Below the pieces are notes generated by a model. The model did no database searches and was not told where the DNA came from. It saw only the letters and a program-made list of their open reading frames with translations. From contig MFAS01000001.1 of assembly GCA_001774685.1 (NCBI GenBank), positions 415,557 to 479,556 of the forward strand: a DNA stretch of 64,000 bases, in the 5' to 3' direction. Positions 5,066-59,196 of the stretch are shown here, one piece after another. Position 1 is the first letter of the stretch. Each line of letters opens with the position of its first letter. The stretch comes from Candidatus Collierbacteria bacterium RIFOXYD2_FULL_45_13 (GTDB lineage Bacteria > Patescibacteriota > Microgenomatia > UBA1400 > MFAQ01). The translations under genes were made by a program, and so were the position numbers.

Positions 5066-5106
5066 GTCATTGCGAGGAGCAGGGCGACGTGGCAATCTCA
5101 CTCCAC
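5066..5106. repeat. Dispersed repeat copy A (GTCATTGCGAG-N-GGCAATCTCACTCCAC family)
   Basis: Left motif GTCATTGCGAG at 5066-5076 and right motif GGCAATCTCACTCCAC at 5091-5106. Intergenic between proS and the ATP-cone gene. Produces the spurious TTG-start N-terminal extension 'MRGAGRRGNLTP' in the ORF track. Confidence 0.8.
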
Positions 5107-5975
5107 TACCTGTTATTATAAATTCAGTGATAACCCTTAGTCCCATTACCATTACCAAGGCTTCCGGTGAGCAAGAGCATTTTGATGAATCTAAGCTCGT
5201 AAAGTCTCTAGCCAAAACAGGACTTTCTGTCGACGTTGCCTCACAAACCGTTGACTACCTCAAGCGCCATCTCAGAACCGGCATTACCACCAAAGATATC
5301 CACGGGCACGTTTCCTTCTATCTCAAAGAAAATGCGCCGGTCAGCAACTACTACAACTACGGCCTCAAACGAGCCATTATGGATCTGGGTCCCTCGGGTC
5401 ACCCCTTCGAAACCATTGTGTCTGATGTTCTCTCGGAATACGGATACAAATCCGAAGTTGGCGTCATCGTTCTCGGTAAATGCGTTACTCACGAAATTGA
5501 TGTTGTGGCCAAAAAAGAGACGAAGCAATTTTTTATCGAGTGTAAATTCCACAACAGTCCCGGTGTCAAAACCGATGTTCAGGTTGCTCTCTACACCTAT
5601 GCTCGATTTTTGGACATCAAGTCGGCGATGGAGCAAAGTCACGGAACCAACATTACCTACTACCCATGGTTAGTTACAAACACCAAAGTGACTTCTGAGG
5701 TATTTGACTATGCGGGCTGTGTGGGTTTGGAGCTTACTTCCTGGCTACACCCACAAGGACACGGTATGTCGGATCTGATCATGGCCGCCGGGCTTCATCC
5801 TGTCACCTTGATTTACTCCATTCCCAGATTCAAAATCAACCAGCTTCTGGAGAGGGGAATCGTTACTTGCGCCAGACTTAAAAAGGCGATTGAAGAGAAC
5901 CAAGTCTCCGATATTCTTACTCACGAGGAAATAAATATGACTTTTCAGCATATCAAAGTAATATGTAAAACCTAA
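5070..5975 (+). CDS. ATP-cone domain + Mrr-like PD-(D/E)xK restriction-endonuclease domain protein
   Basis: 'ITKASGEQEHFDESKLVKSL' is an ATP-cone N-terminus. 'HEIDVVAKKETKQFFIECK' is a D...ExK nuclease core. True start probably GTG near 5134 (MITLSPITITK). The first ~20 codons of the ORF are the repeat element. Confidence 0.6.
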   Translation: MRGAGRRGNLTPLPVIINSVITLSPITITKASGEQEHFDESKLVKSLAKTGLSVDVASQTVDYLKRHLRTGITTKDIHGHVSFYLKENAPVSNYYNYGLKRAIMDLGPSGHPFETIVSDVLSEYGYKSEVGVIVLGKCVTHEIDVVAKKETKQFFIECKFHNSPGVKTDVQVALYTYARFLDIKSAMEQSHGTNITYYPWLVTNTKVTSEVFDYAGCVGLELTSWLHPQGHGMSDLIMAAGLHPVTLIYSIPRFKINQLLERGIVTCARLKKAIEENQVSDILTHEEINMTFQHIKVICKT

Positions 5976-8881: not shown

Positions 8882-10207
8882 GTGCACCGGAAAAAGCGTA
8901 CTCGTCTCACTCATGAAGAGAAGTTTATTATTAGTGGTAGTTCACATATTGGTTTTGGAGGCCAGACCAAGCTACTTCACAAAGTTTTCTCATCGTTACC
9001 GGCTCTAAAGAGCCGTAATTGCCGGCGCTATTTTGCCGGTCAGCTTATCTCCATCATCGGTAGCTGGATGCAAATTGCGGCTCTCGGCTGGCTCACACTT
9101 CAGTTGACCAACTCCGCTTTTATGGTCGGGTTGGTGGCGGCACTGTTTCCCTTACCGGCTCTTTTCTTCTCTCTCTTTGGAGGTATCATCGTTGACCGAT
9201 TTTCCAAAAAGCAGTTGTTACTTATCACCAACTCTTTATCTATGCTCTTAGCCTTTGCCTTGGGTATACTTACTGTTCTGGGAGTTGTTAATATCACCGA
9301 GGTCATTGTTATTTCCTTGTTGGGTGGCATTGTCAGTTCTGTATCTATGCCGGCACACTTTGCCTATCTTAGTGAGCTGGTCGACAAAGAAAATATTTCT
9401 TCAGCCATGTCCATAAACGCCGGCATCTCCAGTCTTGGTCGGGTCCTAGGTCCGGGAATTGCCGGGCTCTACATCGCATTTGCGGGTACTGGAGGAGCCT
9501 TCATTCTCAATGGTCTAAGCTATGTTGCTGTCATCGTTGCTCTTCTACTTATAGACACTCCTTACAAAGTTACCAACCAACATTTGGCACCACTGACCGC
9601 TATCAAAGAGGGGATTGCCTATTCTTTCATGAATCCCATGATACGTTCCATCTTTTTATATGTCAGTGCTATGTCTATTTTTGGCTGGTCCTACACCACC
9701 ATTATTCCCGTCCTAGCGAGAGATGTTTTTCATTCAAACTCTACCGGTATGGGCTATCTTTTCTCATCCATCGGGATTGGGGCTATAGTGGCCACATTAC
9801 TGGTCTCCGCCCTTTCCGGTAAGTTTAGTAAGCTCTCCATCGTCATCTTTGGTAATTCATTATTTTCTCTTAGTCTCTTTCTTTTTTCCTTCACCTCCAA
9901 TCTAAACTTGGGGATATTTTATCTTTTTCTGGCAGGTGGTGGCTTGGTCGCCATTAACGTCATTTTGGGGACCATGGTCCAGTTGATGGCCGATGAAAAA
10001 TACCGTGGTCGTGTTTCCAGTATCTACTATCTTCTTTATGCGGGGCTCTTGTTTCTTGGCAATCTGGAAATTGGTTATCTCACCGACGTTTTTGGTAGCG
10101 GCACAGCTCTTCGCATCAATACTCTGGCTGTCCTTACAATTAGCCTTGCCATCTATTTCACCAAAGACAACCTTCGGTCGGCACAACAGATCTATCTCAA
10201 GTCATAA
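8882..10207 (+). CDS. MFS transporter
   Basis: 12-TM profile with an MFS_1-type N-terminus 'RRYFAGQLISIIGSWMQIAALGW'. Confidence 0.8.
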   Translation: MHRKKRTRLTHEEKFIISGSSHIGFGGQTKLLHKVFSSLPALKSRNCRRYFAGQLISIIGSWMQIAALGWLTLQLTNSAFMVGLVAALFPLPALFFSLFGGIIVDRFSKKQLLLITNSLSMLLAFALGILTVLGVVNITEVIVISLLGGIVSSVSMPAHFAYLSELVDKENISSAMSINAGISSLGRVLGPGIAGLYIAFAGTGGAFILNGLSYVAVIVALLLIDTPYKVTNQHLAPLTAIKEGIAYSFMNPMIRSIFLYVSAMSIFGWSYTTIIPVLARDVFHSNSTGMGYLFSSIGIGAIVATLLVSALSGKFSKLSIVIFGNSLFSLSLFLFSFTSNLNLGIFYLFLAGGGLVAINVILGTMVQLMADEKYRGRVSSIYYLLYAGLLFLGNLEIGYLTDVFGSGTALRINTLAVLTISLAIYFTKDNLRSAQQIYLKS

Positions 10208-10266
10208 AAGATGCTCGGTTTACCCCCAAAAAACCCGCCTTTGCGACGGGTTTCGATAATGTCTTA

Positions 10267-10647
10267 TCAACATTCTGGAAAATATTTCTCAGCCAGCTTC
10301 TTGGCCTGTGTGAAGTAATTATCTCCATCAGTCTTATATCCCTCCGCGGCTTGGTTACGATAAAAACGCAATGGAGGCTCAGCCGGCAGATGATGACTAA
10401 TAAAGACCTCTTCGTGTTTCCAGGTGGCGTAATTGATGATAGCGAGCGCTAGCAGTGTGGCAATTGCTTCAGCTGCATTTTCATCAGTGATGAGGAATAA
10501 TAGCTGACCGGCTTTTCCAGGTTCAAACGAGGCTAGTTGCATCACCACTTCCAGCATATCCGATAAACCAAATGAGCTGGCCAGCTTTGAAACTTCCTTG
10601 ATCACATTATCACTCGGATCAAGATCCAAAATCAGATTGATTACCAT
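10267..10647 (-). CDS. Hypothetical protein
   Basis: 126 aa. No motif. Confidence 0.4.
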   Translation of the reverse strand: MVINLILDLDPSDNVIKEVSKLASSFGLSDMLEVVMQLASFEPGKAGQLLFLITDENAAEAIATLLALAIINYATWKHEEVFISHHLPAEPPLRFYRNQAAEGYKTDGDNYFTQAKKLAEKYFPEC

Positions 10648-15388: not shown

Positions 15389-15463
15389 GGAACCTCCAGG
15401 AGGAATAGGTTAAGACATCCTATATTATATGAGATCACTGCCTCATATGTCAAGACGTCCCCC

Positions 15464-17050
15464 TTAGGGATTCTTCTGCTTTTGTTCCGCTTTCTGCTTC
15501 AGTAGTTCTATGTAGCGTCGAATGTCAGGTATGTCCACAATCTCCAAAGCTTTACTCGCATGTACGATGGCCATATCCCAATCGTCATACGACTCATCCA
15601 AAAATGCCAGTTTTAGGTAAGACATCCACAAGTTGGGATTGATCTTGAGTGCCTCCTCAAAACCCTCTCTAGCCTTTTCTCTTTCGCCAAAAAACATATA
15701 GGTAGAGGCTCTATTATGCATCGCATCTGCGTAATTCGGATTTAGCTCAATTGCTCTGGTGAACTCCTCGATCGCCTTTTCGGCATTGCGTAAATTGACA
15801 TAAGCATCCCCCAGGTTATTATGGTTTATTGGGCTATTGGGAGAATATTCCTCGGCCGAAAACCACAAAGCGTCAGCCGTCCTCCAGTCTCTGATCCGCA
15901 GCAAGGTCCTGCCGGCCATGAGTAAAACCCAGACCGTTACCAGACAGTACAAGACAATCCACTGTTTCTTTTTCTCGGATATGTAGGTGGTGGATAGAGA
16001 AATCATGACGGCTAAGCAAGCGTACCCAAAATATGCATATCTTTCGGCTACCATCATGTTCATACCCGTAGGCGTCAAAGTCACCAGAAGCGAAGTCATA
16101 AATAGCGCCGGCCATAACCAAAAATTCTTTATTTTTTTATTGTCAATCCACGCCCACAGGAGGAAAAGTAAACTAATCCCGCCAAAGGAGAAGATAAATT
16201 TCCAACTAAGATCCACCTCCGAATGATACAGAGTCAGGGCCTTAGGCCAAAAATATAGCCATATATAATTCCCCGTTGGGACCAATACTTTGGCTATGGG
16301 GTTTTCGATTATTTCCCCCGCCACCGTGTAATATGAGTTGGTAAGTACAGCCGCCCGTTCACCGTAGACGGATATCAAGGCAAGTCCTCGTAAAAAAGAC
16401 ATCAAAAAGAGACCGGTCAAGGCCATACTCATTTTTCTCAGTCTTTTGTTTCTCCAGTCCCAAATAAATAACAACACAGGAACAAAAATATATTTTTCGC
16501 ATGAGACTAACGTCAAGATCCAAAGCGCGACTTCGGCAGCATGTTTGAGCTTTGTCTGTTTTTCATCCCAGTGTAGGTACATACAAAGCATCGTCAGCAT
16601 TCCTCCCAAAACATATGGCATTCCCGAAATCCACACTACCGGTTCAACGACGGTGGGAGCCAGTACAAACAAAGCTACAGCGATGATCGCCACCGGGAAG
16701 TCGTACCATCTCCGGACAATTTTGAACAATACAAATGAAGTTGTTAGGTGAAATAGAATACCGGTGAGCCGTAATGGCCAGGGGACTACTCCGAATATGT
16801 TAGTCAGGACTGCATAAATCAGATATTGAAAGGACCACCACGGTCGGAATAGGTCAAAGCTCCAGATACCCACCTTCGCATTGTCCAAAATCGTCGGAAT
16901 ATCATCAGACACGAATTTGTTTGGCAGGCTCGTCAGCCAGATTAGTAAGGCCACCGTCAAAAGCCCCCAAAGGATAGGCGCCTCGAACTTCGCTGCGGTA
17001 GTTGCCTTCGGCTCGGCAATGCTCTTCTCATCCAGTTTGTGTTTATTCAT
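15464..17050 (-). CDS. Polytopic membrane protein with C-terminal TPR repeats (GT-C/PMT-ArnT-like glycosyltransferase family, inferred)
   Basis: About 11 TM helices followed by TPR units ('AIEEFTRAIELNPNYADAMHNRASTY...', 'EALKINPNLWMSYLKLA'). Confidence 0.5.
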   Translation of the reverse strand: MNKHKLDEKSIAEPKATTAAKFEAPILWGLLTVALLIWLTSLPNKFVSDDIPTILDNAKVGIWSFDLFRPWWSFQYLIYAVLTNIFGVVPWPLRLTGILFHLTTSFVLFKIVRRWYDFPVAIIAVALFVLAPTVVEPVVWISGMPYVLGGMLTMLCMYLHWDEKQTKLKHAAEVALWILTLVSCEKYIFVPVLLFIWDWRNKRLRKMSMALTGLFLMSFLRGLALISVYGERAAVLTNSYYTVAGEIIENPIAKVLVPTGNYIWLYFWPKALTLYHSEVDLSWKFIFSFGGISLLFLLWAWIDNKKIKNFWLWPALFMTSLLVTLTPTGMNMMVAERYAYFGYACLAVMISLSTTYISEKKKQWIVLYCLVTVWVLLMAGRTLLRIRDWRTADALWFSAEEYSPNSPINHNNLGDAYVNLRNAEKAIEEFTRAIELNPNYADAMHNRASTYMFFGEREKAREGFEEALKINPNLWMSYLKLAFLDESYDDWDMAIVHASKALEIVDIPDIRRYIELLKQKAEQKQKNP

Positions 17051-48344: not shown

Positions 48345-49133
48345 TTGATTGATTTTTCCCATATTACCAAGTCGTACCCCAATGGCGATGTGGTTCTGAA
48401 TGATGTAAATTTTTCCGTCTCACCTGGAGAATTTGTCGTGATCACCGGTAAGTCCGGAGCCGGGAAAACTACCTTGGGGCGTTTACTTATTCGCGATCTT
48501 CTTCCCATCAAAGGGAAAATAGTTATCGATGGTGAAGATCTTAATCAGATTAAACCGAAAAATATACCCCTGATCAGAAGAAAGGTGGGGTTCGTCTTTC
48601 AAGATTACAAAATTATTCCGGATAAAACTATCGGTGAAAACATCACTATCGCCTTGGAGATTGGTGGATACAACCGCAAAAAAATCCAGGAAAAGATTAC
48701 GGAATTACTCAAAATTGTTGGGATACCGGGTAAAGAGCATTTATTTCCTGGTCAACTATCCGGTGGAGAAGTTCAGCGAGCCGCTATTGCCCGAGCCATC
48801 GCTTGCGAGCCGGCCATTTTATTCGCCGATGAACCTACAGGGAACCTTGACAAAGATACCTCTGTTGAAATCTTTAACCTCCTCAAAAAAATCAACGATG
48901 GTGGTACCACCGTTATCTTGGCCACTCACGATGTTACCTTGATCGGTTTGAACCCGGATCGCAATATCCATCTGGAAAAGGGTAAGATAGTTTCAGATGT
49001 CGATGGCAAACCATCCAAATCGGAGCCATCTTCCGATTCCTCGTCATTGCGAGAAGGTACTCCGACGTGGCCCGCTGGTCCCCGAAGGGGGAAATCTCAC
49101 TCCACCAAGCGTAAAATAAATATCAATAAATGA
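48345..49133 (+). CDS. ftsE: Cell-division ABC ATPase FtsE (with ~35-aa C-terminal extension created by an in-frame repeat)
   Basis: 'GKSGAGKTT', 'LSGGEVQRAAIARAI' and 'LFADEPTGNLD'. The C-terminal 'SSLREGTPTWPAGPRRGKSHST' is the translation of repeat copy E. Stop overlaps the ftsX start (ATGA). Confidence 0.85.
   Translation: MIDFSHITKSYPNGDVVLNDVNFSVSPGEFVVITGKSGAGKTTLGRLLIRDLLPIKGKIVIDGEDLNQIKPKNIPLIRRKVGFVFQDYKIIPDKTIGENITIALEIGGYNRKKIQEKITELLKIVGIPGKEHLFPGQLSGGEVQRAAIARAIACEPAILFADEPTGNLDKDTSVEIFNLLKKINDGGTTVILATHDVTLIGLNPDRNIHLEKGKIVSDVDGKPSKSEPSSDSSSLREGTPTWPAGPRRGKSHSTKRKININK
49043..49105. repeat. Dispersed repeat copy E (long variant, inside ftsE 3' end)
   Basis: GTCATTGCGAG at 49043-49053, extra GC hairpin CCCC-GAAG-GGGG, right motif AAATCTCACTCCAC at 49092-49105. 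Confidence 0.75.
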
Positions 49134-50035
49134 ACACCGCTCTAAAAAATATCCGCCGCTCGCCCTTTCAAGCCTTGTCTGCTGTTTTTATTATTAGTCT
49201 GACCCTCTTCGTAGTTGGCATCTTTACCCTGGTCACTCTAGCCTCTCACGTTATCCTACTCAATTTCGAAACCAAACCCCAGATCATTGCCTACCTTAAA
49301 GATGGCCATACTACGGACCAAGTAGCCGGGCTCATCAGCACCATGACTTCTACCCAAGGCGTCAAAAATGCCGTGTACATCAGTAAGGCAGAAGCCTTGG
49401 AGATTTACAAAAAGAGCGTCGGCAATGACCCGGTATTGTTGGGCACCGTTACGGACTGGGGGATTGTCACCGCCGATATCCTCCCGGCCAGCGTCGAAAT
49501 CACCGCTTCCGATCCAAGTGCTTTCAATACTATTGTTTCTATCATGGAGAAATCAGACATTGTCAGCGCCACGCCACAAGGAAAAAAAGAAATCGACTTT
49601 CCCCAGGACGTCATTTCTGAGCTTACCAAATGGACCAACGCCATTCGCGGAGCCGGACTGATCCTCATCATCGCTCTGACATTTGTTTGTATTTTGACCG
49701 TCATGATTATTATTTCCATGAAAATTTCGGGCAGAAGGACTGAAATTAGCACCCTCAAACTTTTGGGAGCTCAAAACCTCTACATCATCAAGCCTTATAT
49801 TACCGAATCTCTTATCTACGGCTTATTGGGAGCCTTCTTCGGTTGGACTCTTAGCTACATCGCCCTTCTTTATTCCACCCCCTTTCTGGCACCCAGGCTT
49901 GGAGGCGTCATTTCTTTCCCCATACCTTACTGGATCAACCTTTCCCTCCTGGTTGGTTTACTGGCTTTTGGTTTAATCCTGTCTCTCATCTCTAGCTTTT
50001 TTGCCGCCGCTAGATTTGTCAAGAGATCAAGATGA
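49130..50035 (+). CDS. ftsX: Cell-division permease-like protein FtsX
   Basis: N-terminal TM, periplasmic domain, three C-terminal TMs. Adjacent to ftsE. Confidence 0.85.
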   Translation: MNTALKNIRRSPFQALSAVFIISLTLFVVGIFTLVTLASHVILLNFETKPQIIAYLKDGHTTDQVAGLISTMTSTQGVKNAVYISKAEALEIYKKSVGNDPVLLGTVTDWGIVTADILPASVEITASDPSAFNTIVSIMEKSDIVSATPQGKKEIDFPQDVISELTKWTNAIRGAGLILIIALTFVCILTVMIIISMKISGRRTEISTLKLLGAQNLYIIKPYITESLIYGLLGAFFGWTLSYIALLYSTPFLAPRLGGVISFPIPYWINLSLLVGLLAFGLILSLISSFFAAARFVKRSR

Positions 50036-51249
50036 AAAAAGTTTGTTTGCTACTTGCCGCCTTATTTTTTCTGATGGTCCCCACGAAAATATTTGCGGTT
50101 AATTGTGATGATAAGCCAGCCGACAATCTTAGTCAAACTGACCTGGAGACCTTTTGGAAAGATGTCAGTACTGCATGCGCCACCCAGATTGCCCAAAACC
50201 GAAATGACCAAAACACTCTCAAGCAAGCAATCTCGTCTCTAAACGCCAAAATCAACTTGACTCAAGCCCAGATAAATCAAACTACGGTTCAAATTGCCTC
50301 ACTAGAAAAAGATATTACCGTCTTGAGTGGCGTCTTGGAGACAGTCAATCAATCAGTAATCGAACTCACACAAATATATCTGGCACGGGTAAAAGAAAGT
50401 TATCGACGCACACGGATCACTCCTGTCGATCTGATTTTTTCGACAAATTCTTTTGGTGACTACTTTACAAAACTCAAATACCTAAATTCTCTCAAGGCTA
50501 AAGATCAGCTTATCCTGGCAGAACTGGAAAATTCGCGAAAAGATTACGACTTACGCAAACAAACGAAAATCACAAAACAACTAGAAATTGAAAAGCTCAA
50601 GACAAAGCTCATCACACAGCAAAAGGTTATAGTGACCCAGCAAAAAGACAAACAAAGCCTGCTCGCTTCGACGCAAAATGATGAAAAAAGATTTCAAGAT
50701 CTTCTAAAACAGGCTAATGCTCAAGTCGCGGCCTTCAAGAAATTTACTTCTGGAGCAACTCCTCTATCCAATCAGACTCATTGCGATGGCTGGGGTTGTT
50801 ATTACAGTCAGCGTGATTCGGCCTGGTTTTATCACAATATTGGCAACTCCCCCGAAATTTTGGGTCAAGTTGGGTGTTTGATAACCTCCACCGCCATGGT
50901 TGCTTCTCACTATGGTAAAAGTTTAAAGCCTAGTGATATCGCCAGTAGCAACGAACCCTTTTTCCTGGACACTGCTTATATGAAATTTGACCCATGGTCT
51001 GTCAACGGTGTCCAGATAATTCGATCCACTATCAGTAAAGACAAGGCCGACGAAGAGATCAATGCCGGTCGGCCGGTAATCGCCGGTCTCAATACGGGTA
51101 ATGGAACCCATTTCATCGTTCTGAAAGGCAAAGATGGCGACAACTACATTATGAATGATCCTTATATGGAGAATGGCTATGATAAGCCATTTTCTGGCAC
51201 ATATAATCTAAACCAGGTTTTTCGATTTGATAAAGTTTCTGTCAATTAA
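50032..51249 (+). CDS. Secreted coiled-coil + CHAP/C39-like cysteine peptidase (PcsB/EnvC-like putative FtsEX-activated cell-wall hydrolase)
   Basis: Signal peptide, ~230-aa coiled coil, C-terminal domain with Cys in 'GQVGCLITSTAMV' and His in 'GTHFIVLKG'. Overlaps the ftsX stop. Confidence 0.55.
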   Translation: MKKVCLLLAALFFLMVPTKIFAVNCDDKPADNLSQTDLETFWKDVSTACATQIAQNRNDQNTLKQAISSLNAKINLTQAQINQTTVQIASLEKDITVLSGVLETVNQSVIELTQIYLARVKESYRRTRITPVDLIFSTNSFGDYFTKLKYLNSLKAKDQLILAELENSRKDYDLRKQTKITKQLEIEKLKTKLITQQKVIVTQQKDKQSLLASTQNDEKRFQDLLKQANAQVAAFKKFTSGATPLSNQTHCDGWGCYYSQRDSAWFYHNIGNSPEILGQVGCLITSTAMVASHYGKSLKPSDIASSNEPFFLDTAYMKFDPWSVNGVQIIRSTISKDKADEEINAGRPVIAGLNTGNGTHFIVLKGKDGDNYIMNDPYMENGYDKPFSGTYNLNQVFRFDKVSVN

Positions 51250-51252
51250 TCT

Positions 51253-51543
51253 AAAAAAAAGAAGCCTCCCGTTACACGGGAGGCTCTCACCAATAAGAGT
51301 CGACTTCAGAAGTTCACCCCCCAGTGGAGGGCACCTTTTTGAACCAGTCGATAATACGGTTCAAACGCGGTACTTCTTTGTCAACTTCTCCCACCGGAAG
51401 GTGGAATCGGGCTTAAAACCCGGGCACGGAGTCGCACCGTGCACTAAAGGCAAGCTCCGGGAACAAGGCTAGGCACTGGAGGTCGGGAAACCCGAACTCT
51501 ATATACACCCAAACGCCCCATGCCCAGACCGCCTTTTAACAAC
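51253..51543 (-). ncRNA. Candidate ~290-nt structured ncRNA (unassigned family)
   Basis: Minus strand. Consensus promoter TTGACA-16-TATAAT (plus coordinates 51576-51549). GC-rich body with hairpins CCACC-GGAA-GGTGG, GCACGG-AGTCGCA-CCGTGC and TCGGG-AAA-CCCGA. Ends in the terminator GCCTCCCG-UGUAA-CGGGAGGC plus UUCUUUUUUUU. No credible ORF. Confidence 0.4.
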
Positions 51544-51548
51544 TTTGT

Positions 51549-51576
51549 ATTATAAGCCCAAGTTTCTCATTGTCAA
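51549..51576 (-). promoter_or_regulatory. Consensus sigma70 promoter overlapping helicase stop codon
   Basis: Minus reading: TTGACA (plus 51576-51571), 16-nt spacer, TATAAT (plus 51554-51549). Confidence 0.5.
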
Positions 51577-54461
51577 GCCTTTTTAAGGACTTCTTTCAGC
51601 TTCAATCCTATCTTAGAGACCCCCTTTTCTTCCGTTACACTCAGCACTTCCACGCGGACCAGGTCACCTATACTCAGGATGTCGCTCGGCTTGTTTACCC
51701 ATGTGCCCATCTTGGAGATGTGGATCAGGCCTTGGTAGCCAAGATCCAGGGAAACAAACGTTCCGAAAGCCGCAAAATTGACTACTCTTGCTTCCAGAAG
51801 TTGTCCAACTTTGTACCGGTTTATCGGGCTATTTTCCGGAATAGCCAGGCTCATCCTAATGCTCTGACGTTCCTTGTCGAACTCGATCACCTTAGCTTTG
51901 ATAGACTCACCGTGACGAATTACTTGGGTAGCGTCTTTGATGAACGAGCTCTTGTTGATTTCACTGACATGGATATAGACATTCATATTTTCCGGAGTAT
52001 TGGCAAAGACGCCTCCACTGATGACGGATTTAACTTTCACTTCCAGAACCCGTCCCAAAGGATAAGTCTTGGCCATGCTTCTTTCCCAATCTTCCTCGAC
52101 CAATGCGATGGCCTCCTCGAGAGTCAGGTCCATCCCTTCGAAAACCCGGGCACAGGCCTCATCGGCATCATCGTTTGCGTCCAATCCAATCAGCTCTCTC
52201 GCCAGTGCAAGCGACGAAAGATTGTCAGCAACGCTTTTTGCTACCGCCTTTTTTCGTTCTGCCGGTAAGAACATCTGATAAGTAGCGCTCGTACCGCTAT
52301 CAGCAGAAATCTTCGGGTTGTAGGAATACCCGCTTTCGGCCACTTCTTTGTAAGGTATGCAATAAGCCAAAATCATTCTTGCCCGGTTAAGCAATCGGAA
52401 ATCAATTTCTCGGAAGTTGCTATCTTTTTTGTGGGTATTCAACAGTCTTAGTATCTGATTCCGCTCGGTGTCAACCTCTTCAATTACCTGCATATTTACG
52501 TAGTATTCTGCACACCAGATTTCCCGGCGTTCGGCCAAACTCTGTTTCTTCACCGATTTTTTCTGACGTTCGGGCGGACTGATCCACAATTGGTAGAGTT
52601 TCAAAATAAACTCCACGTCGTCTTTGCAGTTTTTCCAAAGTAGCTGGTGGGCTATTTTAGCCTTTTGAGCTTCTTTTTTATCCCAATCGTCATTCGATGT
52701 CAACAAGTATTTGTGACCACCATTCTTAATGACCGGCAGTAATGTAGCTACCTCCACTGCACAGCCAAATCTATCGGAAAGAATAATAAGGTCGGTCAGT
52801 TTGCTGGTGTAAGCAAACTCCCTGAGCATAGATCCGTACTCCGTGAGCATCTCATCTTCGTCGATAGCCTTACTCGCCTTTAGTGAGGTAAGCGATCTGG
52901 AAAGTTCGGCTTCTTTTGGTTTTTCAATCCAACCCTCACCGAGGTCATCCACGCCCAATCTTTTTAGAAGCAAGACGATTTCTTCCATAGACGATCTTTG
53001 AATCGCCGGAATGGGGAAGGGGAGCATCGATTTAAACTGTTCTTCCGAATACAAGCAATAAACATCACCTGGTGCAGTTCTTCCCGAGCGTCCCCATCTT
53101 TGTTTAGCGTTTGCTTGGGAAATTAGAGTCAGACCGACTTTGGTTTCCAAAGTCTCCGACCTCCAGTTGGCTTGATTTTCAACTCCGGTTTCTACCACAT
53201 AGACAACCCCGGAAACCGTCACCGACGCTTCGGCGACATTAGTACTGACGATCACACGAATCTTGCCAGAGTTTGAATCTCTCAGAACAACATCCTTCAC
53301 TCCCTTATCCAGGTCGCTGTAAAGAGGATAAACTTCGACCTTATCTCGAAGGTTGTCACTCTGCCCAATCGCTTTCTTCAATCCCGACACGGCTTCCTCA
53401 ATCGGTTTTACTCCTTGAAGAAAAGCCAGGATGTTTCCCTTAACTTTTCTACCGGAGAGTTGCTCGTTGAGTAACCACATTACCTTTTTTGTCATGGCCG
53501 AAACAATCAAGTTCCTTAAATGTGGTGGGTTGTCGTAGGGCAGCTTTTCACTTTCGGGAGCAAAATTAACCTTGTATTCAAACTTTCTTTTTGCTTCAAA
53601 CTCGATAATTTTGGCCGTATCACAGCCAAAGTAGTTTAGGAAAAGATTTTTGTTGATCGTCGCACTGACGATTAGCACTTTTAAATGGGGATAAAGCGGC
53701 AATTGATCTTTCAGAAGCCGCAAAATGATATCGATGTTCTCCGATCTTTCATGAGCTTCATCGATCATCACCACACTCAAGTCCGACAGCTGACCTTTCA
53801 TAATCATATTGATCAGACTTCCGTCGGTAGCCAAAAACGCCGCATTAAAACGATCGGTATTTCGGTCCTTACTGTACCGGTATCCAATATCAAAACCCTT
53901 ACCGACAGTCGATCCAAGTAGCACCCCCATATATTCTGCAATGGAGGTAGTGGCTACGATTCTCGGCTGGGTGATCAGGATTTGGCCGTCACGGATAAAG
54001 AAATCTGCGGGCACTCCTTTTGGAGGAAAAATCAGCCAGTAGGGGAGGGCCGTGGACTTTCCGGATCCGGTCTCCCCGATAATAATGGCTACCTGATGGT
54101 TCTTATCTTTTAACCACTGATAAATTTCTACAATTTTATCCGGAGTAGCCCCAAATTGAGTTTCATCAAAGGTGGACGGTTTCTCCACTTTCGTATGGGG
54201 TCTCTGCGGATGATAAACCATCCCCAATTCTCCAGGGAGAGCGATCGAGAGATCCTCTCCAGGGAGTGTCTTCACCGAGAAATAAGCCGCTCCCATCGTC
54301 ATTTTTTCCAAGAGTAGTGCTTTGCGGCACTCTTCACAATATTCCGGGCGTGACTGCCCATACTCTTTAATTTTTTCGTACATCATTCCGGAGTATCCAA
54401 TTTCAATTCCACACCTCTTACACTTGACCGTATACTCTACCGTTGTTCTGGTCATTGTCAC
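51573..54461 (-). CDS. DEAH-box ATP-dependent RNA helicase (HrpA/HrpB-like) with N-terminal zinc ribbon and C-terminal tandem S1 domains
   Basis: 'GETGSGKST', 'DEAHERS', 'SAT', 'QRWGRSGR'. N-terminal CxxC...CxxC. C-terminal S1-like repeats 'GRVLEVKV...' and 'GQLLEARVVNF...'. Confidence 0.85.
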   Translation of the reverse strand: MTMTRTTVEYTVKCKRCGIEIGYSGMMYEKIKEYGQSRPEYCEECRKALLLEKMTMGAAYFSVKTLPGEDLSIALPGELGMVYHPQRPHTKVEKPSTFDETQFGATPDKIVEIYQWLKDKNHQVAIIIGETGSGKSTALPYWLIFPPKGVPADFFIRDGQILITQPRIVATTSIAEYMGVLLGSTVGKGFDIGYRYSKDRNTDRFNAAFLATDGSLINMIMKGQLSDLSVVMIDEAHERSENIDIILRLLKDQLPLYPHLKVLIVSATINKNLFLNYFGCDTAKIIEFEAKRKFEYKVNFAPESEKLPYDNPPHLRNLIVSAMTKKVMWLLNEQLSGRKVKGNILAFLQGVKPIEEAVSGLKKAIGQSDNLRDKVEVYPLYSDLDKGVKDVVLRDSNSGKIRVIVSTNVAEASVTVSGVVYVVETGVENQANWRSETLETKVGLTLISQANAKQRWGRSGRTAPGDVYCLYSEEQFKSMLPFPIPAIQRSSMEEIVLLLKRLGVDDLGEGWIEKPKEAELSRSLTSLKASKAIDEDEMLTEYGSMLREFAYTSKLTDLIILSDRFGCAVEVATLLPVIKNGGHKYLLTSNDDWDKKEAQKAKIAHQLLWKNCKDDVEFILKLYQLWISPPERQKKSVKKQSLAERREIWCAEYYVNMQVIEEVDTERNQILRLLNTHKKDSNFREIDFRLLNRARMILAYCIPYKEVAESGYSYNPKISADSGTSATYQMFLPAERKKAVAKSVADNLSSLALARELIGLDANDDADEACARVFEGMDLTLEEAIALVEEDWERSMAKTYPLGRVLEVKVKSVISGGVFANTPENMNVYIHVSEINKSSFIKDATQVIRHGESIKAKVIEFDKERQSIRMSLAIPENSPINRYKVGQLLEARVVNFAAFGTFVSLDLGYQGLIHISKMGTWVNKPSDILSIGDLVRVEVLSVTEEKGVSKIGLKLKEVLKKA

Positions 54462-54540
54462 ACTCCTTTTGTTGTCAATGTTCGGTCATCCTTGAAGGAT
54501 GCTCTGATTCTACGCCCAAGCCATCAAAAAACAAATAGCC

Positions 54541-54578
54541 ACAAAAACAAAAAACCGAGGGTGAATATTCACTCTCGG
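54541..54578 (-). terminator. Intrinsic terminator ending the 3-gene operon
   Basis: Minus reading: CCGAGAGTGAA-TAT-TCACCCTCGG followed by TTTTTGTTTTTG. Confidence 0.65.
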
Positions 54579-54590
54579 TAGTCACACGGG

Positions 54591-55739
54591 TTAGCTCCAG
54601 ACCCTTCCTTCCTCATATTCTTCCCCAAAATAATAATGAGGAATTACCTCCAACTCCGGCGCCGATTTTTCTCTTTTCAACAGTTCTTCAGTTAGCGCTC
54701 GATAAAAACCAACCACAGCCGGCTGGAATCCAGTCTGGAAGAAGGCGATTCGATAGATCCCCTCACTCCGTAATTTTTCGAAAATTTCTTTCGCTCTTAC
54801 ATAAGCCGCCTCATCCGATTCTGCGGCTGTTTTCCCGATGGAGATTTCCTGGTTTCGGAAGAAATACACCTTCACCACCTCGTCCATTTCATGATGCCTT
54901 CCGCTCATCATTCCCACGTTTAAGATGGGATGTTTGGACAAAGCCTTCAGTTTTTCACTTCTAAACTTAAGACAGCGGATCGGTAATGGTTTGCCTTTCG
55001 ATCCGTCAGCGTAAATTACCGGTAAATACATCGGTCTTCCACCTTGATATACAAATTCGCGCAGTATCTCGGTAATGACATTGTGTGCCAGATCACTAAA
55101 ATTGACACCCGTCTGAATTCCTTTCTCCATATCAGCGATCACGGTGTTGATCTGATTCCTGAGGGCCATGAACGAGTTAACGTCTTTGGCGGAGGTAATC
55201 TTGTCGCTCACAGGAATTGATAAAAATTTAGATATCAGTCCGTCTTCGGGATTTACCTCTGCATCTTCGGTAATCAGCTGCTCTTGCAGTTCCAGTATGT
55301 GTAACTTATTTTTTTCGGCATCACGATAGAAGCGTATTTTTTCTTGTATTTCTTTCCGGTCGGAAACGCCTGCCCGCTTTACCAGGTTTTCGAACAGACT
55401 GATCTGCTCGGTGATTTTGGACCATGGACAGAAGTTGGCCGATACTCTAGCGGACCTGAATTCAACAGGGAAACGTGCCTGTATTTGCAGCAGAAGTTCA
55501 AAATACTCGATTCCCAACTCCACTGACCGAACCGATTTATTCATACCGATAAAACTACCCAAGTATTCCATTCGGTCACACAGGATATGATAACGCCGCT
55601 GTTCATCATCGGGGTTTACCCCCTTCCTCAAACGCTCTTCGATCTTGAGGGCTTTAGACATCAGTACCCTCAAGTCAAGCCTCTCGACGAGGCATGCATC
55701 ATCAGGAACGGCAATCAGCTTTATGGAAGTTTTCATCAT
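54591..55739 (-). CDS. Hypothetical protein (operon gene 3, 382 aa)
   Basis: No recognisable motif. Start overlaps the stop of gene 2 (4 nt). Confidence 0.5.
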   Translation of the reverse strand: MMKTSIKLIAVPDDACLVERLDLRVLMSKALKIEERLRKGVNPDDEQRRYHILCDRMEYLGSFIGMNKSVRSVELGIEYFELLLQIQARFPVEFRSARVSANFCPWSKITEQISLFENLVKRAGVSDRKEIQEKIRFYRDAEKNKLHILELQEQLITEDAEVNPEDGLISKFLSIPVSDKITSAKDVNSFMALRNQINTVIADMEKGIQTGVNFSDLAHNVITEILREFVYQGGRPMYLPVIYADGSKGKPLPIRCLKFRSEKLKALSKHPILNVGMMSGRHHEMDEVVKVYFFRNQEISIGKTAAESDEAAYVRAKEIFEKLRSEGIYRIAFFQTGFQPAVVGFYRALTEELLKREKSAPELEVIPHYYFGEEYEEGRVWS

Positions 55740-56890
55740 TGCCGCGTTCTCCTTCCTGTTTCCAAACGACGGATTGCCTCTTTGTCCAAACTCGTCATAC
55801 TATCCGGCGCCAACATCAAATACACACCCTCCTTTTTTAATTGGCTGATAATCTGAGTTTGAAAGGCGAGGGATACATCTTCAAAGTCACGAGGAACTAG
55901 ATAGAAGACCATGGTAGTAGCGTCTTTTCGGTACTTGGCAATCAGTTTTTTCAAACTTCCCAAATCGTTCAGAAAATATTTTTGAATTTCTCCATCCGAC
56001 CTGGCTCGGACCAGTACCACCATGCGCTGGCCGGCAGAGAGCATTTTATTCTCATCGATCCACGGAATCATTAGTTCAGTGTCGGCATGATATATTTTGG
56101 CAAAATAAACCGAGTCAAAATCAATAGCCAGAGGGGATTCTTCATCTTCCGACTCCACGATTTGACCACCTTCAAACAGCTCGGTTCTGAGCAGTTTTCT
56201 ATCCAGCACTCCTCCCAAGATCGCCGATCCGGCTACTCGTAGGTCGTTGAGATACAAGTGTCTGTCTTCAGGATCCGAGGCACTTTGTAGCAACCTCTCC
56301 GGGTGACGGCTGCCGAGAATAATAGATTCTGCTTCCGACAAACTCCAGACTCCTCCCATTATCAAGAAACATACTCTCTCTGGAGAAATTAGTTTATCTA
56401 CTGCCATCTTCATAATCTTTTCTTTGGCTGTCTGAGAAAATCCGGCCAGACCAAGATACAATTGTCGTGCTTCAAAAGGCGTAATATGGCCTTCAAAAAC
56501 ATGTTTGAGCTTGACACCCATCTCGATAGCTAGGTCGCAAATGTAGGCAGGAACCCGGCCACCCTCGACATTCGAAGTAAAGACGATTTCCATCGACCCG
56601 CCACATTTGTAGCTTTCGGAAAGTAAAAAACCCAGAGCTACTTTTGCTCCGCTGTTTTCTACATACTGCGGGGGGTTGGCAATCAGACAGACGTCGACCT
56701 CTAGAAAGTTTCCTTTGCGGTTATGTTTAACCACCAAGAGCGAAAAAACAATATCTCTTGAACACCAGCGGTAAGGCCGATAGTCAAAGTTTTTTGGCAG
56801 CTTATTTCTTTTCCGGAACGAATTCTCATAATCGGTTACATGTTTCTTAAATGCTTCAAGACCATGCAGAACCTCTTCGGTTGTCGGCAT
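55736..56890 (-). CDS. Hypothetical protein (operon gene 2, 384 aa)
   Basis: No recognisable motif. Confidence 0.5.
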   Translation of the reverse strand: MPTTEEVLHGLEAFKKHVTDYENSFRKRNKLPKNFDYRPYRWCSRDIVFSLLVVKHNRKGNFLEVDVCLIANPPQYVENSGAKVALGFLLSESYKCGGSMEIVFTSNVEGGRVPAYICDLAIEMGVKLKHVFEGHITPFEARQLYLGLAGFSQTAKEKIMKMAVDKLISPERVCFLIMGGVWSLSEAESIILGSRHPERLLQSASDPEDRHLYLNDLRVAGSAILGGVLDRKLLRTELFEGGQIVESEDEESPLAIDFDSVYFAKIYHADTELMIPWIDENKMLSAGQRMVVLVRARSDGEIQKYFLNDLGSLKKLIAKYRKDATTMVFYLVPRDFEDVSLAFQTQIISQLKKEGVYLMLAPDSMTSLDKEAIRRLETGRRTRQ

Positions 56891-56899
56891 ATTCTCTCC

Positions 56900-57376
56900 T
56901 CATCTTAGTTGTGTTACATCAACGAGCTGAGATTCCGGGTCGATATGAATTACCAAGAACTCAACATTAGCCGCTCCAACCCGAAGAATTTCTTCTCCGA
57001 TCATTGCATTGGCAGCCGAATAGAAACTAGAAGTTGGGTCACACATCAGGGTGGCTTTGTACTCTACCCACTCGACAGACCCTTCCCGTCCGTGAACTGT
57101 ATCTTTCAAAGATGCCACTCCGGAAGACTTGGTGGCCTTTGCCTCCACTATTACGAGCTTACCGGCTCCATCTCGAAACACGTTGTCATAGCCATGAATT
57201 TTTTTGTCAAATCGCTCTGTTCCCAAATTTAGTTCTTTGACAGCGTGCTCCGTAGCCATTTGTTCTCCCAGATCACCCTGCCAGATGTTTCCATATCTCT
57301 GGACAGTATTTAAGACAACCAAAGCAATATAACCCGCATCTTCTTCGGTCGGAATTTTTCCGCAGCATTGGGACAT
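56900..57376 (-). CDS. Mrr-like PD-(D/E)xK nuclease-domain protein (operon gene 1, 158 aa)
   Basis: 'HGYDNVFRDGAGKLVIVEAK' closely parallels 'HEIDVVAKKETKQFFIECK' of the ATP-cone/Mrr protein at 5070. Same D...(E)xK core spacing. Confidence 0.45.
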   Translation of the reverse strand: MSQCCGKIPTEEDAGYIALVVLNTVQRYGNIWQGDLGEQMATEHAVKELNLGTERFDKKIHGYDNVFRDGAGKLVIVEAKATKSSGVASLKDTVHGREGSVEWVEYKATLMCDPTSSFYSAANAMIGEEILRVGAANVEFLVIHIDPESQLVDVTQLR

Positions 57377-57470
57377 ATAGGCTCCTTTTTCTAACCCTAG
57401 TTTTCAAAGTTCATCTACGCTTATGGATGAATTCTACCACCACGTAGGTTCAAAATGATAAAATATTTTT

Positions 57471-58064
57471 ATGGATCAGCAAATACACGTTAAGGCCCAA
57501 ACTCTCTACGGGTTAGCAAGACAAGCTGGCCTCATCACCTCAGAACCCTTTTCCACTGTTTTTTCCCAAGAAATACTCCGGGGAATTTCGGAGATGTTAG
57601 ACCGTGAGAGGACCTTTCTAATTCACTCAAAACCAAAGACCGAAGATCCAGAAAAGCTTTGGAAGGAGGGAATTGATCTCAAGATTTCCGAGTTAGTTGC
57701 TCAGGAGTTGCTAGATTTTCTCCAAAACATTCACAAGGCCTTTAGTGTTGCTTACGACCAGCCTGTCGAGGATGTTGTTTTCAATTTCCGCACTGTCTCC
57801 GAAGATCTCAGCATTTCGGACTTAGGTGAAAAGCAAGAAAACGGCAAGTGGTTTCAAGGTATGAAAATTGATGAAGAAACTTTTTGGTACCTGGCCGATG
57901 AGCCGGCTCTGGTCCAGGACACCCTCCATGATATAAATCAAAAGCTCTCTCCTCTTTCCAAGGGCATCCTGCGTGCAGACTTCCGAGATCAGGATCAATA
58001 TGTCGTCATTGATCTAAAACATCTCCCTGAATTTGAAAAATTTGGTTTTTCCTCGGTATCGTGA
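57471..58064 (+). CDS. Hypothetical protein (divergent from the 3-gene operon)
   Basis: 197 aa. No motif. Confidence 0.45.
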   Translation: MDQQIHVKAQTLYGLARQAGLITSEPFSTVFSQEILRGISEMLDRERTFLIHSKPKTEDPEKLWKEGIDLKISELVAQELLDFLQNIHKAFSVAYDQPVEDVVFNFRTVSEDLSISDLGEKQENGKWFQGMKIDEETFWYLADEPALVQDTLHDINQKLSPLSKGILRADFRDQDQYVVIDLKHLPEFEKFGFSSVS

Positions 58065-58136
58065 TAATATATTCTTGAGATCAGCCCGTATCGCGTAACT
58101 TCTGTTACGTGACTAGGTTGATCTCAATTTCTTTCA

Positions 58137-58165
58137 AAACTGCCTATTGACACTGGTTTCATTGT
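58137..58165 (+). promoter_or_regulatory. Sigma70-type promoter TTGACA-17-TACAAT
   Basis: TTGACA at 58137-58142 and TACAAT at 58160-58165, upstream of the 58297 gene. Confidence 0.45.
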
Positions 58166-58296
58166 AACTTACAATCATAAATAGTCGAGAACGCAAGTTT
58201 TCGATCAGAGATACTAGCAATAGTAAATCGGAAAAAGGCTCCGCAAGGAGTTCTTTTTCTTTATATACCCCTCCATTCTGTTATAGTTGGTATAAA

Positions 58297-59196
58297 GTGA
58301 AACAAATCCTGCCCGTGTTGTTTCTTTTTCTGTTGTTCTTCCTTATATCTCCTCCTCACACACTTGCAGTTTCCTTCACTATTGATAATCCCGTCAGAGA
58401 AGGGGATTACTATATCGTCGATGCCAGCGTTTCCGGGATCTCTTCCTCCTCAGCTTACGTCTTTGGTATGTTTACCAACAAGGACAATCCTGATTATTTC
58501 GGTTTCACTTGGGGTCAGAAAGAAGATTGGGTCGAGTATCAATCCACCACCAAAGAGTTTATTTCGGCCAATTTACCCATTCTTTTGAGGGACACACTTC
58601 AAAAAATTTGGATCAAACCAAACTATCAAAACCCAGGTTACAAAGGACCGGGTGATTACTATCTGAAACTCAAACGATACACCGGCTCGTCCGACGGGTC
58701 AGCTGGTGATTCAAATGTACTAACCATCCATCTTATGGAGACCACCCCAACTCCAACGCCCACCGAAGAAAGTACCACCACTCTTACTCCAACTCAGACT
58801 TCCACTCCTACTACAAGCTCAGTCCAAGAGCCGACTGTTACTTTGAATCCTACCAAGACTCCTACACCAACGGCCATTAAAACCCCTACCCCAACTCCTC
58901 TTAAAACATCCACTCCTACCAAAACACTCACACCCACCCCGCCCGTCATTGCGAACCCCACTTTAGTGGGGCGTGGCAATCTCACTCCACCCGATTCCTC
59001 TCGCTCCTCCATTCTCGGCATGTCAACCGCGTCTGCGTCTCCGGATGTCATCATTGCGAGGAGCGGAAGTGACGCGGCAATCTCAAATTCAAGAAGTGCT
59101 TTCAACGCTTCAAATCTCAAATACACCTTTATTTTTGGGGTCATCATCACCTCACTTTCCGGAGGTGTCCTGTATTTTAGACACCGGAACGTCTAA
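58297..59196 (+). CDS. Secreted PT-rich surface protein with C-terminal TM anchor (contains two in-frame repeat copies)
   Basis: Signal peptide 'ILPVLFLFLLFFLISPPHTLA', TPTPT linker, C-terminal TM 'FIFGVIITSLSGGVLYF'. Repeat copies F and G are translated as 'PPVIANPTLVGRGNLTPP' and 'DVIIARSGSDAAIS'. Confidence 0.55.
   Translation: MKQILPVLFLFLLFFLISPPHTLAVSFTIDNPVREGDYYIVDASVSGISSSSAYVFGMFTNKDNPDYFGFTWGQKEDWVEYQSTTKEFISANLPILLRDTLQKIWIKPNYQNPGYKGPGDYYLKLKRYTGSSDGSAGDSNVLTIHLMETTPTPTPTEESTTTLTPTQTSTPTTSSVQEPTVTLNPTKTPTPTAIKTPTPTPLKTSTPTKTLTPTPPVIANPTLVGRGNLTPPDSSRSSILGMSTASASPDVIIARSGSDAAISNSRSAFNASNLKYTFIFGVIITSLSGGVLYFRHRNV
58945..58990. repeat. Dispersed repeat copy F (inside CDS)
   Basis: GTCATTGCGA at 58945-58954, internal CCCCAC-TTTA-GTGGGG, right motif GGCAATCTCACTCCAC at 58975-58990. 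Confidence 0.8.
59050..59085. repeat. Dispersed repeat copy G (degenerate, inside CDS)
   Basis: ATCATTGCGAGGAGCGGAAGTGACGCGGCAATCTCA. Confidence 0.6.

Follow-up and report, generated by a model that had tools for sequence, protein, structure and literature searches.

A candidate mobile toxin-effector cassette with a DEAH/RHA helicase in Candidatus Collierbacteria and distant bacterial phyla

The locus

This report concerns three minus-strand genes, gA, gB and gC, and the helicase gene that follows them, in Candidatus Collierbacteria bacterium RIFOXYD2_FULL_45_13 (assembly GCA_001774685.1). The DNA analysed, called the window below, is a stretch of 64,000 nucleotides (contig MFAS01000001.1, positions 415,557 to 479,556 of the forward strand), and positions are counted from its first letter. 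An earlier sequence-only reading had described gA, gB and gC as a self-contained operon headed by an Mrr-like nuclease and as a candidate undescribed system. We found that gB, gC and the helicase form a core that recurs in several phyla next to a variable small gene, and we suggest that the whole may be a mobile conflict cassette. The genes and signals of the locus are as follows.

56900-57376, minus: gA, 158 aa, first of three packed open reading frames (ORFs); cysteine leader (MSQCCGKIPTEED...) at residues 1-~22, predicted PoNe-like PD-(D/E)xK nuclease at ~30-158
55736-56890, minus: gB, 384 aa
54591-55739, minus: gC, 382 aa
~54541-54580, minus: intrinsic-terminator-like hairpin ACCGAGAGTGAATATTCACCCTCGGT then TTTTTTGTTTTTG, between gC and the helicase gene
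51573-54455, minus: helicase gene, 960 aa, beyond the hairpin 3' of gC; the likely start is ATG 54455, 7 nt after AAGGAG (the ORF lister gives GTG 54461)
57377-57470, minus: intergenic control region of gA-gB-gC and p197, 94 nt, read from the sequence
57386-57382, minus: Shine-Dalgarno AGGAG of gA, 6 nt before the ATG
57439-57431, minus: extended -10-like box TGGTAGAAT upstream of gA, read from the sequence
57471-58064, plus: p197 gene, 197 aa, divergent from gA

The layout of the trio had been read correctly. The three minus-strand genes of 158, 384 and 382 aa are present, with a gap of 9 nt between gA and gB and an overlap of 4 nt (ATGA) between gB and gC. They also have an upstream region of their own, the 94-nt intergenic region that holds the AGGAG and TGGTAGAAT elements. 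Because a sigma-70 consensus scan gave no full -35/-10 pair in 57377-57470, the promoter of gA is a putative assignment. The terminator that had been placed after gC is plausible as well: just behind the gC stop codon, a 26-nt hairpin followed by a T-run folds with a free energy of -19.5 kcal/mol (z = -2.45; 3 of 200 shuffles fold equally well). A consensus terminator scan did not pick up this hairpin, and an Rfam scan of 51000-58500 found no RNA element.

A -10-like hexamer, TAGAAT, lies ahead of gA (57431-57436, minus) and also ahead of the helicase gene (54507-54512, minus), and a properly spaced -35 box accompanies it at neither. These hexamers may be promoters of the type used by the Candidate Phyla Radiation (CPR).

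Two further claims about the trio did not survive. It had been said to have a visibly higher GC content than its neighbours; at 0.4537, its GC fraction differs little from the window mean of 0.4529 and stands at the 52nd percentile among same-size windows. A check of composition also put its codon usage and its GC content at third codon positions inside the range of the other genes. A foreign origin of the trio on grounds of composition was rejected, the composition being native. Nor is the three-gene operon self-contained, as the DEAH helicase downstream is an invariable partner in other genomes. The gA, gB and gC proteins are identical in GCA_001774675.1 and GCA_001000625.1.

A conserved gB-gC-helicase core

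Homologue searches returned 82 clusters for gB, 83 for gC and 48 for gA, and the same contigs recurred across the three lists. When one genome per species was scanned with the gC profile, 39 of 185,579 species genomes matched. The loci found in this way belong to Patescibacteria, Chloroflexota, Actinomycetota (Streptomyces, Nocardia, Rhodococcus, Solirubrobacterales and Intrasporangiaceae), Alphaproteobacteria and Gemmatimonadota. Searches with hidden Markov models (HMMs) showed that, in all of the ~40 loci with enough flanking sequence, gB, gC and the helicase lie side by side on one strand and their order does not change. The full order (small protein, gB-like protein, gC-like protein, giant helicase with DEAD, Helicase_C and S1 domains) was read in Chloroflexota, in Rhodococcus, in GCA_036704275.1 and in another CPR lineage. 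The genome of the Chloroflexota locus (L001) is recorded as Zixibacteria by one source.

Thus, the expectation that the trio would be conserved as a unit was borne out to the extent that the gene set is kept together in dozens of genomes. The claim that the nuclease heads the system was not, since the conserved core is gB-gC-helicase and the small first gene varies; the nuclease is the interchangeable part. In non-CPR loci gC and the helicase gene abut or overlap, and several CPR loci have an extra leader-bearing ORF between them. Because the two genes abut or overlap outside CPR, the hairpin and the separate transcription unit are a feature of the CPR lineage and not a boundary of the system.

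The window helicase is 47% identical to the helicase of the Chloroflexota cassette over 625 residues, N-terminal zinc ribbon included, and 60% identical to that of another CPR locus. For gC the identity between CPR and Chloroflexota is 31%, and the cassette has a patchy phyletic pattern. The identities of the helicase and gC, taken with this pattern, suggest that the cassette has been transferred between lineages. One sign of mobility is carriage on a plasmid: the conjugative plasmid pB of Paenarthrobacter ureafaciens (L046, NZ_CP094491.1) carries the cassette between a relaxase and a T4 coupling protein, where it is annotated as ‘hypothetical protein’ twice and as ‘S1 RNA-binding domain-containing protein’. 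Carriage by phages or viruses was also considered and was rejected; the phage and viral collections contained no gC relatives and nothing in them matched the cassette.

Two further signs of mobility are the variation in genomic context among CPR genomes and the genes around the Chloroflexota cassette. The Chloroflexota locus is flanked (1-947, plus; 15410-16972, minus) by a 1211-aa TIR-NACHT-HEAT protein, an insertion sequence (DDE) transposase, a resolvase and a Ser/Thr-kinase-like protein, and its context is the most defence-island-like among the loci. In Rhodococcus sp. KRD162 (L003/L004) a gene of the dCMP/cytidine-deaminase family, weakly similar to MafB19-like deaminases, lies just upstream of the cassette (5266-5910, plus), as does a sugar-modifying gene cluster.

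A cysteine leader marks the variable slot

In nearly all loci the gene upstream of gB, whether co-directional or divergent, encodes a protein that starts M-[GAST]-(x)-C. Outside CPR this protein is usually not homologous to gA. What the slot proteins share is only an N-terminal cysteine leader of ~20 residues, which takes the form MSQCCGKIP in CPR, MACGNNH(V/I)SR.YLSSQP in Actinomycetota, MGC... in Chloroflexota, MACAKPP or MACGKPPNPG in Alphaproteobacteria and Gemmatimonadota, and MGCAKPGGE in Streptomyces. Behind it stand C-terminal modules of several kinds: gA-like PD-(D/E)xK nucleases (in Nocardia noduli and an Anaerolineales genome), a Pfam Endonuclea_NS_2 domain (1.4e-09), a domain with the motif HVHVxH, a glycine-zipper tail and unclassified domains. 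The same MACGNNH leader is found on both REase-type (restriction endonuclease-type) and HVHV-type modules. The form of the leader follows the clade of gB, gC and the helicase and not the kind of toxin domain behind it, as a docking signal would be expected to do.

The leader is also present on genes outside the slot. Several CPR loci contain one or two extra ORFs that share only their first 22-28 residues with gA (MSQCCGKIPT.(D/E)D(V)..I..SI). They lie between gC and the helicase gene or just past the helicase gene, and several have TTG starts. Their C-terminal parts fall into two families, ‘...HYTTVNTATN.RHSYTV...’ and ‘...DLSISDSP.PFKDPVEK...GQTGVENPRTGERRH’. The window itself contains no second leader-bearing ORF. 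The extra ORFs are the following.

L002, 10653-11072, minus: extra leader ORF
L009, 8622-9011, minus: extra leader ORF
L010, 5078-5452, minus: extra leader ORF
L011, 8694-9035, minus: extra leader ORF
L007, 2166-2600 and 6041-6394, minus: two extra leader ORFs

Third positions in identical leader codons agree in only 54% of cases. As the synonymous sites vary, the leader is conserved as a peptide and not as an RNA. It is present on at least 34 of 145 gA-domain representatives, and it contains no signal peptide, hydrophobic signal sequence or lipobox context.

On plasmid pB, an unannotated small ORF (~10070-10526, plus) starts MACGNNHVSRAFLASPP (MACGNNHVS...), contains an HVHVVYH motif and lies directly upstream of the gB homologue. 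The plasmid record has, at this position, a 73-aa ‘hypothetical protein’ on the opposite strand instead. An RHS-repeat toxin gene lies ~6 kb from the small ORF.

The helicase

In the helicase, an N-terminal CxxC...CxxC zinc ribbon is followed by a DEAH/RHA core and a winged-helix/ratchet/OB region, and the C-terminal part holds two S1 domains; Pfam recognizes DEAD, Helicase_C and two S1 domains in it. Its motifs are intact in translation (Walker A GETGSGKST, DEAH box IDEAHERS, SAT and motif VI QRWGRSGR). In phmmer searches its closest solved relatives were Prp43/DHX15/DHX8 at 1e-59 and HrpA at 1e-50. However, it scored 230.9 bits with the NCBIfam model of HrpA (TIGR01967), which has a cut-off of 722.75, and 186 bits with that of HrpB, which has a cut-off of 546. 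Because these scores are far below the equivalog cut-offs, we assign the protein to the DEAH/RHA family and not to the HrpA or HrpB orthologues.

The cassette helicase has the same core, winged-helix/ratchet/OB region and motifs as HrpA and Prp43/DHX15/DHX8, and like DHX8/Prp22 it joins S1 domains to the DEAH core. It differs from the HrpA and Prp43 types in its extra N-terminal CxxC zinc ribbon and in its obligate linkage to gB and gC. It also differs in that its C-terminal S1 repeats are expanded elsewhere, so that the protein reaches 1500-3000 aa in other phyla.

The nuclease gA

The sequence-only reading had seen a restriction-endonuclease-like catalytic core in gA, and the catalytic signature holds. 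Residues E38, D64, E78 and K80 are invariant in 47 homologues, and the catalytic residues are conserved to at least 90% in 131 superfamily representatives. The Mrr-like label had to be given up, as gA has no Mrr_cat (PF04471) match at E <= 1. The protein itself has no match in Pfam, NCBIfam, PHROGs, PADLOC or PDB sequences. Individual members of its superfamily gave weak matches (1e-4 to 5e-3), all to families of the REase clan (Mrr_cat_2, NucS_C, Mrr_cat, UPF0102, NERD and HamA). It had also been suggested that the core of gA almost superimposes on that of an ATP-cone/Mrr protein elsewhere in the window. A profile-profile alignment with hhalign covered only 27 columns (E = 0.25, probability 0.2%), and the gA HMM found no paralogue in the window, so that the similarity appears to be at the level of the motif only. 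The protein in question (5070-5975, plus, 301 aa) scores 23.5 bits for the ATP-cone, just below the cut-off, and 23.2 bits for Mrr_cat, above the cut-off.

A search of 1.84 billion representative proteins with the gA profile found 160 relatives. Many of them carry the gA domain at the C-terminus of a longer protein, including an RHS-core protein and WXG100-like proteins. A broad profile of the gA superfamily matched the PoNe DNase VP14465 (PDB 9waq_B) along the GE..GxD..ExK..QMS.W motif, with E = 0.0021; neither the narrow gA profile nor gA as a single sequence reached PoNe. PoNe has been shown experimentally to be an Mg/Mn-dependent DNase and an effector of type VI secretion systems (T6SS; PMC13377157, PMC6688995). 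These matches suggest that gA is closer to the PoNe-type polymorphic toxin DNases than to Mrr, and DNase activity is predicted for it.

PoNe enzymes, such as VP14465 of Vibrio parahaemolyticus, are DNase toxins of polymorphic toxin systems of the T5SS, T6SS and T7SS kinds (PMC6688995, PMC13377157). Their motif, Kx3GE..GID..Y..Yx3ExK, has its elements in the same order as the gA motif, (Q/K)x3GE...GxDxx(F/Y)...hhhExK...QxSxxW, although gA has Q for the first K and F for Y. A second likeness is that RHS and WXG100-type proteins can have a gA domain as their C-terminal module. In contrast to the PoNe loci, no DUF1910/DUF1911 (PoNi) immunity gene accompanies gA, and gB, gC and p197 have no such match. 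In addition, gA is a stand-alone protein of 158 aa in which the cysteine leader takes the place of a secretion-associated N-terminal domain.

Among the relatives are proteins of ~330-400 aa, some of 500 aa (P0230, P0235, P0240, P0244, P0250, P0259, P0266 and others), in which a conserved N-terminal helical domain (‘..ADIEAL..LR.AL..FA...’) and hydrophobic segments precede a C-terminal gA/PoNe-like nuclease. They seem to form a toxin system of their own that employs the same nuclease module. P0294, a related representative whose N-terminus differs, is probably the one positive for WXG100.

The proteins gB and gC

As had been noted, neither large protein contains a recognizable motif: scans with the models of Pfam, NCBIfam, PHROGs and PADLOC matched neither gB nor gC, and their profiles found nothing meaningful among PDB sequences. 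Pfam scans of 54 gC and 55 gB homologues detected only SUKH, in gB, and no gC member had a match. Predicted structures do not place the two proteins in ordinary metabolic families. Their models resemble defence-type modules, REase-like and GNAT-like for gB and SAVED/CARF-like for gC.

The AlphaFold2 model of gB has a mean predicted local distance difference test score (pLDDT) of 92 and a predicted TM-score (pTM) of 0.86. A helical middle separates an N-terminal domain of the arrangement alpha-beta-beta-beta-alpha-beta from an alpha/beta domain at the C-terminus; we interpret the first as a putative restriction-endonuclease-like domain (~1-125) and the second as a GNAT-like domain (~235-384). 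The GNAT-like fold resembles tRNA-acting GNATs. In CPR members, D46, E64, D66 and K95 look catalytic, but they are replaced in most of 36 family members. Thus, the REase-like domain is probably a non-catalytic scaffold, and we rejected the idea that gB is a catalytic nuclease.

Outside CPR, gB begins with a SUKH (SMI1/KNR4) domain, and 17 of 55 gB homologues were Pfam-positive. The extension of the actinobacterial and proteobacterial proteins aligns with the SUKH region (hhalign E = 6.3e-05). The window gB does not contain a SUKH domain. We also considered a zinc clasp between the leader cysteines and the cysteines of gB, and dropped it because C43 and C96 are A, S or N in most members.

In the AlphaFold2 model of gC (pLDDT 87), a disordered linker (residues 159-185) separates two domains. 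By the model, the N-terminal domain would be YfbM-like and the C-terminal domain a Rossmannoid fold of the SAVED/CARF-like kind. Because all invariant residues of the family (R281, H282, D286, N296, D309, G337, G344, F345, R347 and A348) are in the C-terminal domain, this domain would fit a ligand-binding or catalytic pocket.

The divergent gene p197

It had been suggested that the divergent 197-aa gene at 57471 might be associated with the trio, and the comparison supports this. Wherever a CPR locus has enough flanking sequence, p197 homologues are found in this divergent position. Those next to gA are 62% (L008), 45% (L009) and 27% (L011) identical to p197, and those in L010, L012 and L002 are ~31% identical in the C-terminal domain. 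In L002 and L012 the gene is kept although the other flanking genes differ from those of the window. Searches of Pfam, PDB and SUKH gave no significant match for p197, and NCBIfam, PHROGs and PADLOC gave none. The idea that it is a cryptic SUKH protein was unsupported (hhalign E = 0.21). We consider p197 a partner of the cassette that is specific to CPR, with a candidate role in immunity or regulation.

Discussion

Based on these results, we propose that the locus is a mobile conflict cassette with four components, joined in CPR by p197, and that it acts as a helicase-gated toxin-effector system of the abortive-infection or defence type. We give this proposal a probability of roughly one half. 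The part of the earlier defence or conflict-system claim that stood is that an undescribed multi-gene set combines a PD-(D/E)xK effector with two large partners. The anatomy given with that claim did not stand, as the helicase was missed and the nuclease turned out to be swappable.

The first part of our model addresses the input. We propose that the helicase, with its zinc ribbon, DEAH/RHA core and S1 domains, could serve as an ATP-driven sensor or motor for nucleic acid, probably RNA. The second part concerns regulation. The adaptor or regulatory core would be formed by gC, through its SAVED/CARF-like pocket, and by gB, which would contribute an inactive REase-like scaffold, a GNAT-like domain and, outside CPR, a SUKH domain for toxin binding. 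An interchangeable toxin, in the window the putative PoNe-like Mg-dependent DNase gA, would be recruited through the ~20-residue cysteine leader and held inactive by that leader on a complex with gB and gC, and perhaps with the helicase. Inhibition may be provided by SUKH or, in CPR, by p197. The GNAT-like domain may modify the cysteine or the N-terminus of the leader. The final part of our model involves the output. Engagement of foreign RNA by the helicase, or binding of a ligand to gC, would release or activate the toxin, and DNA would be degraded. We infer toxin release on sensing of foreign RNA by analogy with helicase-gated nuclease systems and from the logic of toxin-immunity pairs.

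An anti-phage outcome would be one form of such a response. Known defence genes show no clear enrichment around the cassette. The 129 flanking proteins contain no recurrent partner or defence family, only scattered transposases and integrases, and enrichment in defence islands is therefore not demonstrated.

We tentatively suggest a bolder version of the model, which is possible but falls well short of the proposal above in probability. The cassette could represent a new class of immune system in which a RIG-I-like DEAH/S1 helicase, a SAVED-like protein and an adaptor made of an inactive nuclease and a GNAT-like domain form a constant ‘launcher’ that docks and fires any leader-bearing toxin. 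Docking would perhaps occur through covalent modification of the cysteine or the N-terminus. The leader would then be a portable effector-addressing signal, used from CPR to Streptomyces.

Three other explanations were weighed. The cassette could be an addiction-type module that stabilizes plasmids or genomic islands and does not serve in defence against phage, with the leader-toxin as poison, gB (through SUKH) or p197 as antidote, and gC and the helicase tuning the turnover of the antidote. In favour of this are the direct succession of toxin gene and SUKH-bearing protein (the classic order of toxin and immunity genes), the presence of the cassette on a conjugative plasmid and the absence of defence-island enrichment. 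However, an ATP-dependent S1 helicase of 960-3000 aa and a SAVED-like protein exceed the needs of any known addiction module, and these two are more conserved than the toxin. We regard an addiction module as unlikely, while noting that it overlaps with the proposed conflict cassette because many toxin-antitoxin modules act as abortive-infection systems.

A polymorphic toxin system acting between bacteria appears somewhat more doubtful. In this case the leader would be a signal for export, lipidation or trafficking, the C-terminal domains would be delivered to competitors or hosts, and gB-SUKH would confer immunity. The order of a constant N-terminus, a variable C-terminal toxin and then SUKH is as such a system would have it, and several toxin alleles are possible per locus. 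Moreover, the gA domain occurs in RHS and in WXG100-type toxins of the type VII secretion system (T7SS) kind, PoNe is a T6SS effector (PMC6688995), and an RHS gene is found near the cassette on pB. Nevertheless, neither the cassette nor its flanks have conserved secretion genes, signal peptides or membrane proteins, its conserved partners are cytoplasmic proteins that handle nucleic acids, and the leader lacks a hydrophobic signal sequence or lipobox context.

Least probable of all is a housekeeping role in RNA metabolism or RNA quality control, in which an HrpA-like helicase with the cofactors gB and gC would remodel or repair RNA and the small nuclease would assist as a processing enzyme: the cassette does encode a genuine RNA helicase of the DEAH/RHA family with S1 domains, the Collierbacteria locus lies among housekeeping genes with native composition and the GNAT-like fold of gB resembles tRNA-acting enzymes, but the cassette is rare and patchy (39/185,579 species genomes; ~80 clusters per protein) and plasmid-borne, and its slot holds unrelated toxin domains (a non-specific endonuclease, a glycine-zipper tail) that would not be expected of a cofactor.

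The proposed conflict cassette can be compared with several described systems. The effectors of CBASS (cyclic-oligonucleotide-based anti-phage signalling systems) and type III CRISPR that join SAVED or CARF to a nuclease (Cap4, Cap5, Can2 and Card1) are different. The cassette proteins have no CD-NTase, Cas10, TIR or cyclase, and none of these recurs in the 129 flanking genes. The catalytic residues of the REase-like domain of gB are not conserved, gC has no SAVED/CARF match at the level of sequence, and the cassette adds a helicase and a separate toxin.

Hachiman consists of the PD-(D/E)xK nuclease HamA and the helicase HamB. The cassette differs in having no PADLOC match to HamA or HamB, its helicase weakly matching only Cas3 models, and in having a DEAH/RHA helicase of the HrpA/Prp43-like kind with a zinc ribbon and S1 domains. 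It also contains two extra proteins that belong to no family and an interchangeable effector.

The toxin-immunity loci with SUKH (SMI1/KNR4) proteins (PMC3482391) share more with it: variable C-terminal toxin modules behind a constant N-terminal element, a SUKH protein immediately downstream (outside CPR) and extra toxin alleles per locus. Yet the N-terminal element of the cassette is only ~20 residues long, with a conserved cysteine and no known trafficking domain. Its SUKH domain is fused to a conserved core of ~385 aa. A SAVED-like protein and an RNA helicase invariably accompany the locus, and secretion genes are absent.

The building blocks of the cassette (SF2 helicase, SAVED-like fold, REase fold, SUKH and polymorphic toxins) are known; the combination of components and the leader-based effector slot are new. 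Neither gB nor gC belongs to a family in Pfam (2025), NCBIfam (2026) or PADLOC v2, and the annotation pipeline PGAP calls both of them hypothetical. Neither the cassette nor the leader turned up in searches of the literature, although papers or databases beyond those covered, such as newer DefenseFinder models, could describe them.

If our model is correct, the cassette represents a new defence or conflict system that spans several phyla and relies on an RNA helicase of the DEAH/RHA family. We did not find this helicase family in a defence role in the model libraries or literature searched, and the closest solved relatives of the cassette helicase are spliceosomal (Prp43, DHX15 and DHX8). It would add two new protein families, gB and gC. 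The short, portable cysteine leader would mark diverse toxins; it could be used to search for new toxin domains, and possibly to recruit toxins conditionally. The cassette would also join the few candidate immune systems that are native to CPR/Patescibacteria. As close versions are present in culturable Rhodococcus, Streptomyces and Nocardia and on the Paenarthrobacter conjugative plasmid, these ideas are directly testable.

Neighbouring genes

On the plus strand at 48345-51249, directly downstream of the helicase gene and opposite to it, the window contains a cluster of FtsE (an ABC ATPase), FtsX and a coiled-coil/Peptidase_C39_2 protein (PcsB-like). This is a housekeeping, cell-division context, and it is syntenic in CPR loci L007-L009.

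Beyond p197, at 58297-59196 (plus), lies a gene for a 299-aa protein that has no Pfam match and is partly conserved in L009. The protein has an N-terminus like a signal peptide, a long linker rich in Pro and Thr (PTPTPT) and a hydrophobic anchor at the C-terminus; it is probably a CPR cell-surface protein.

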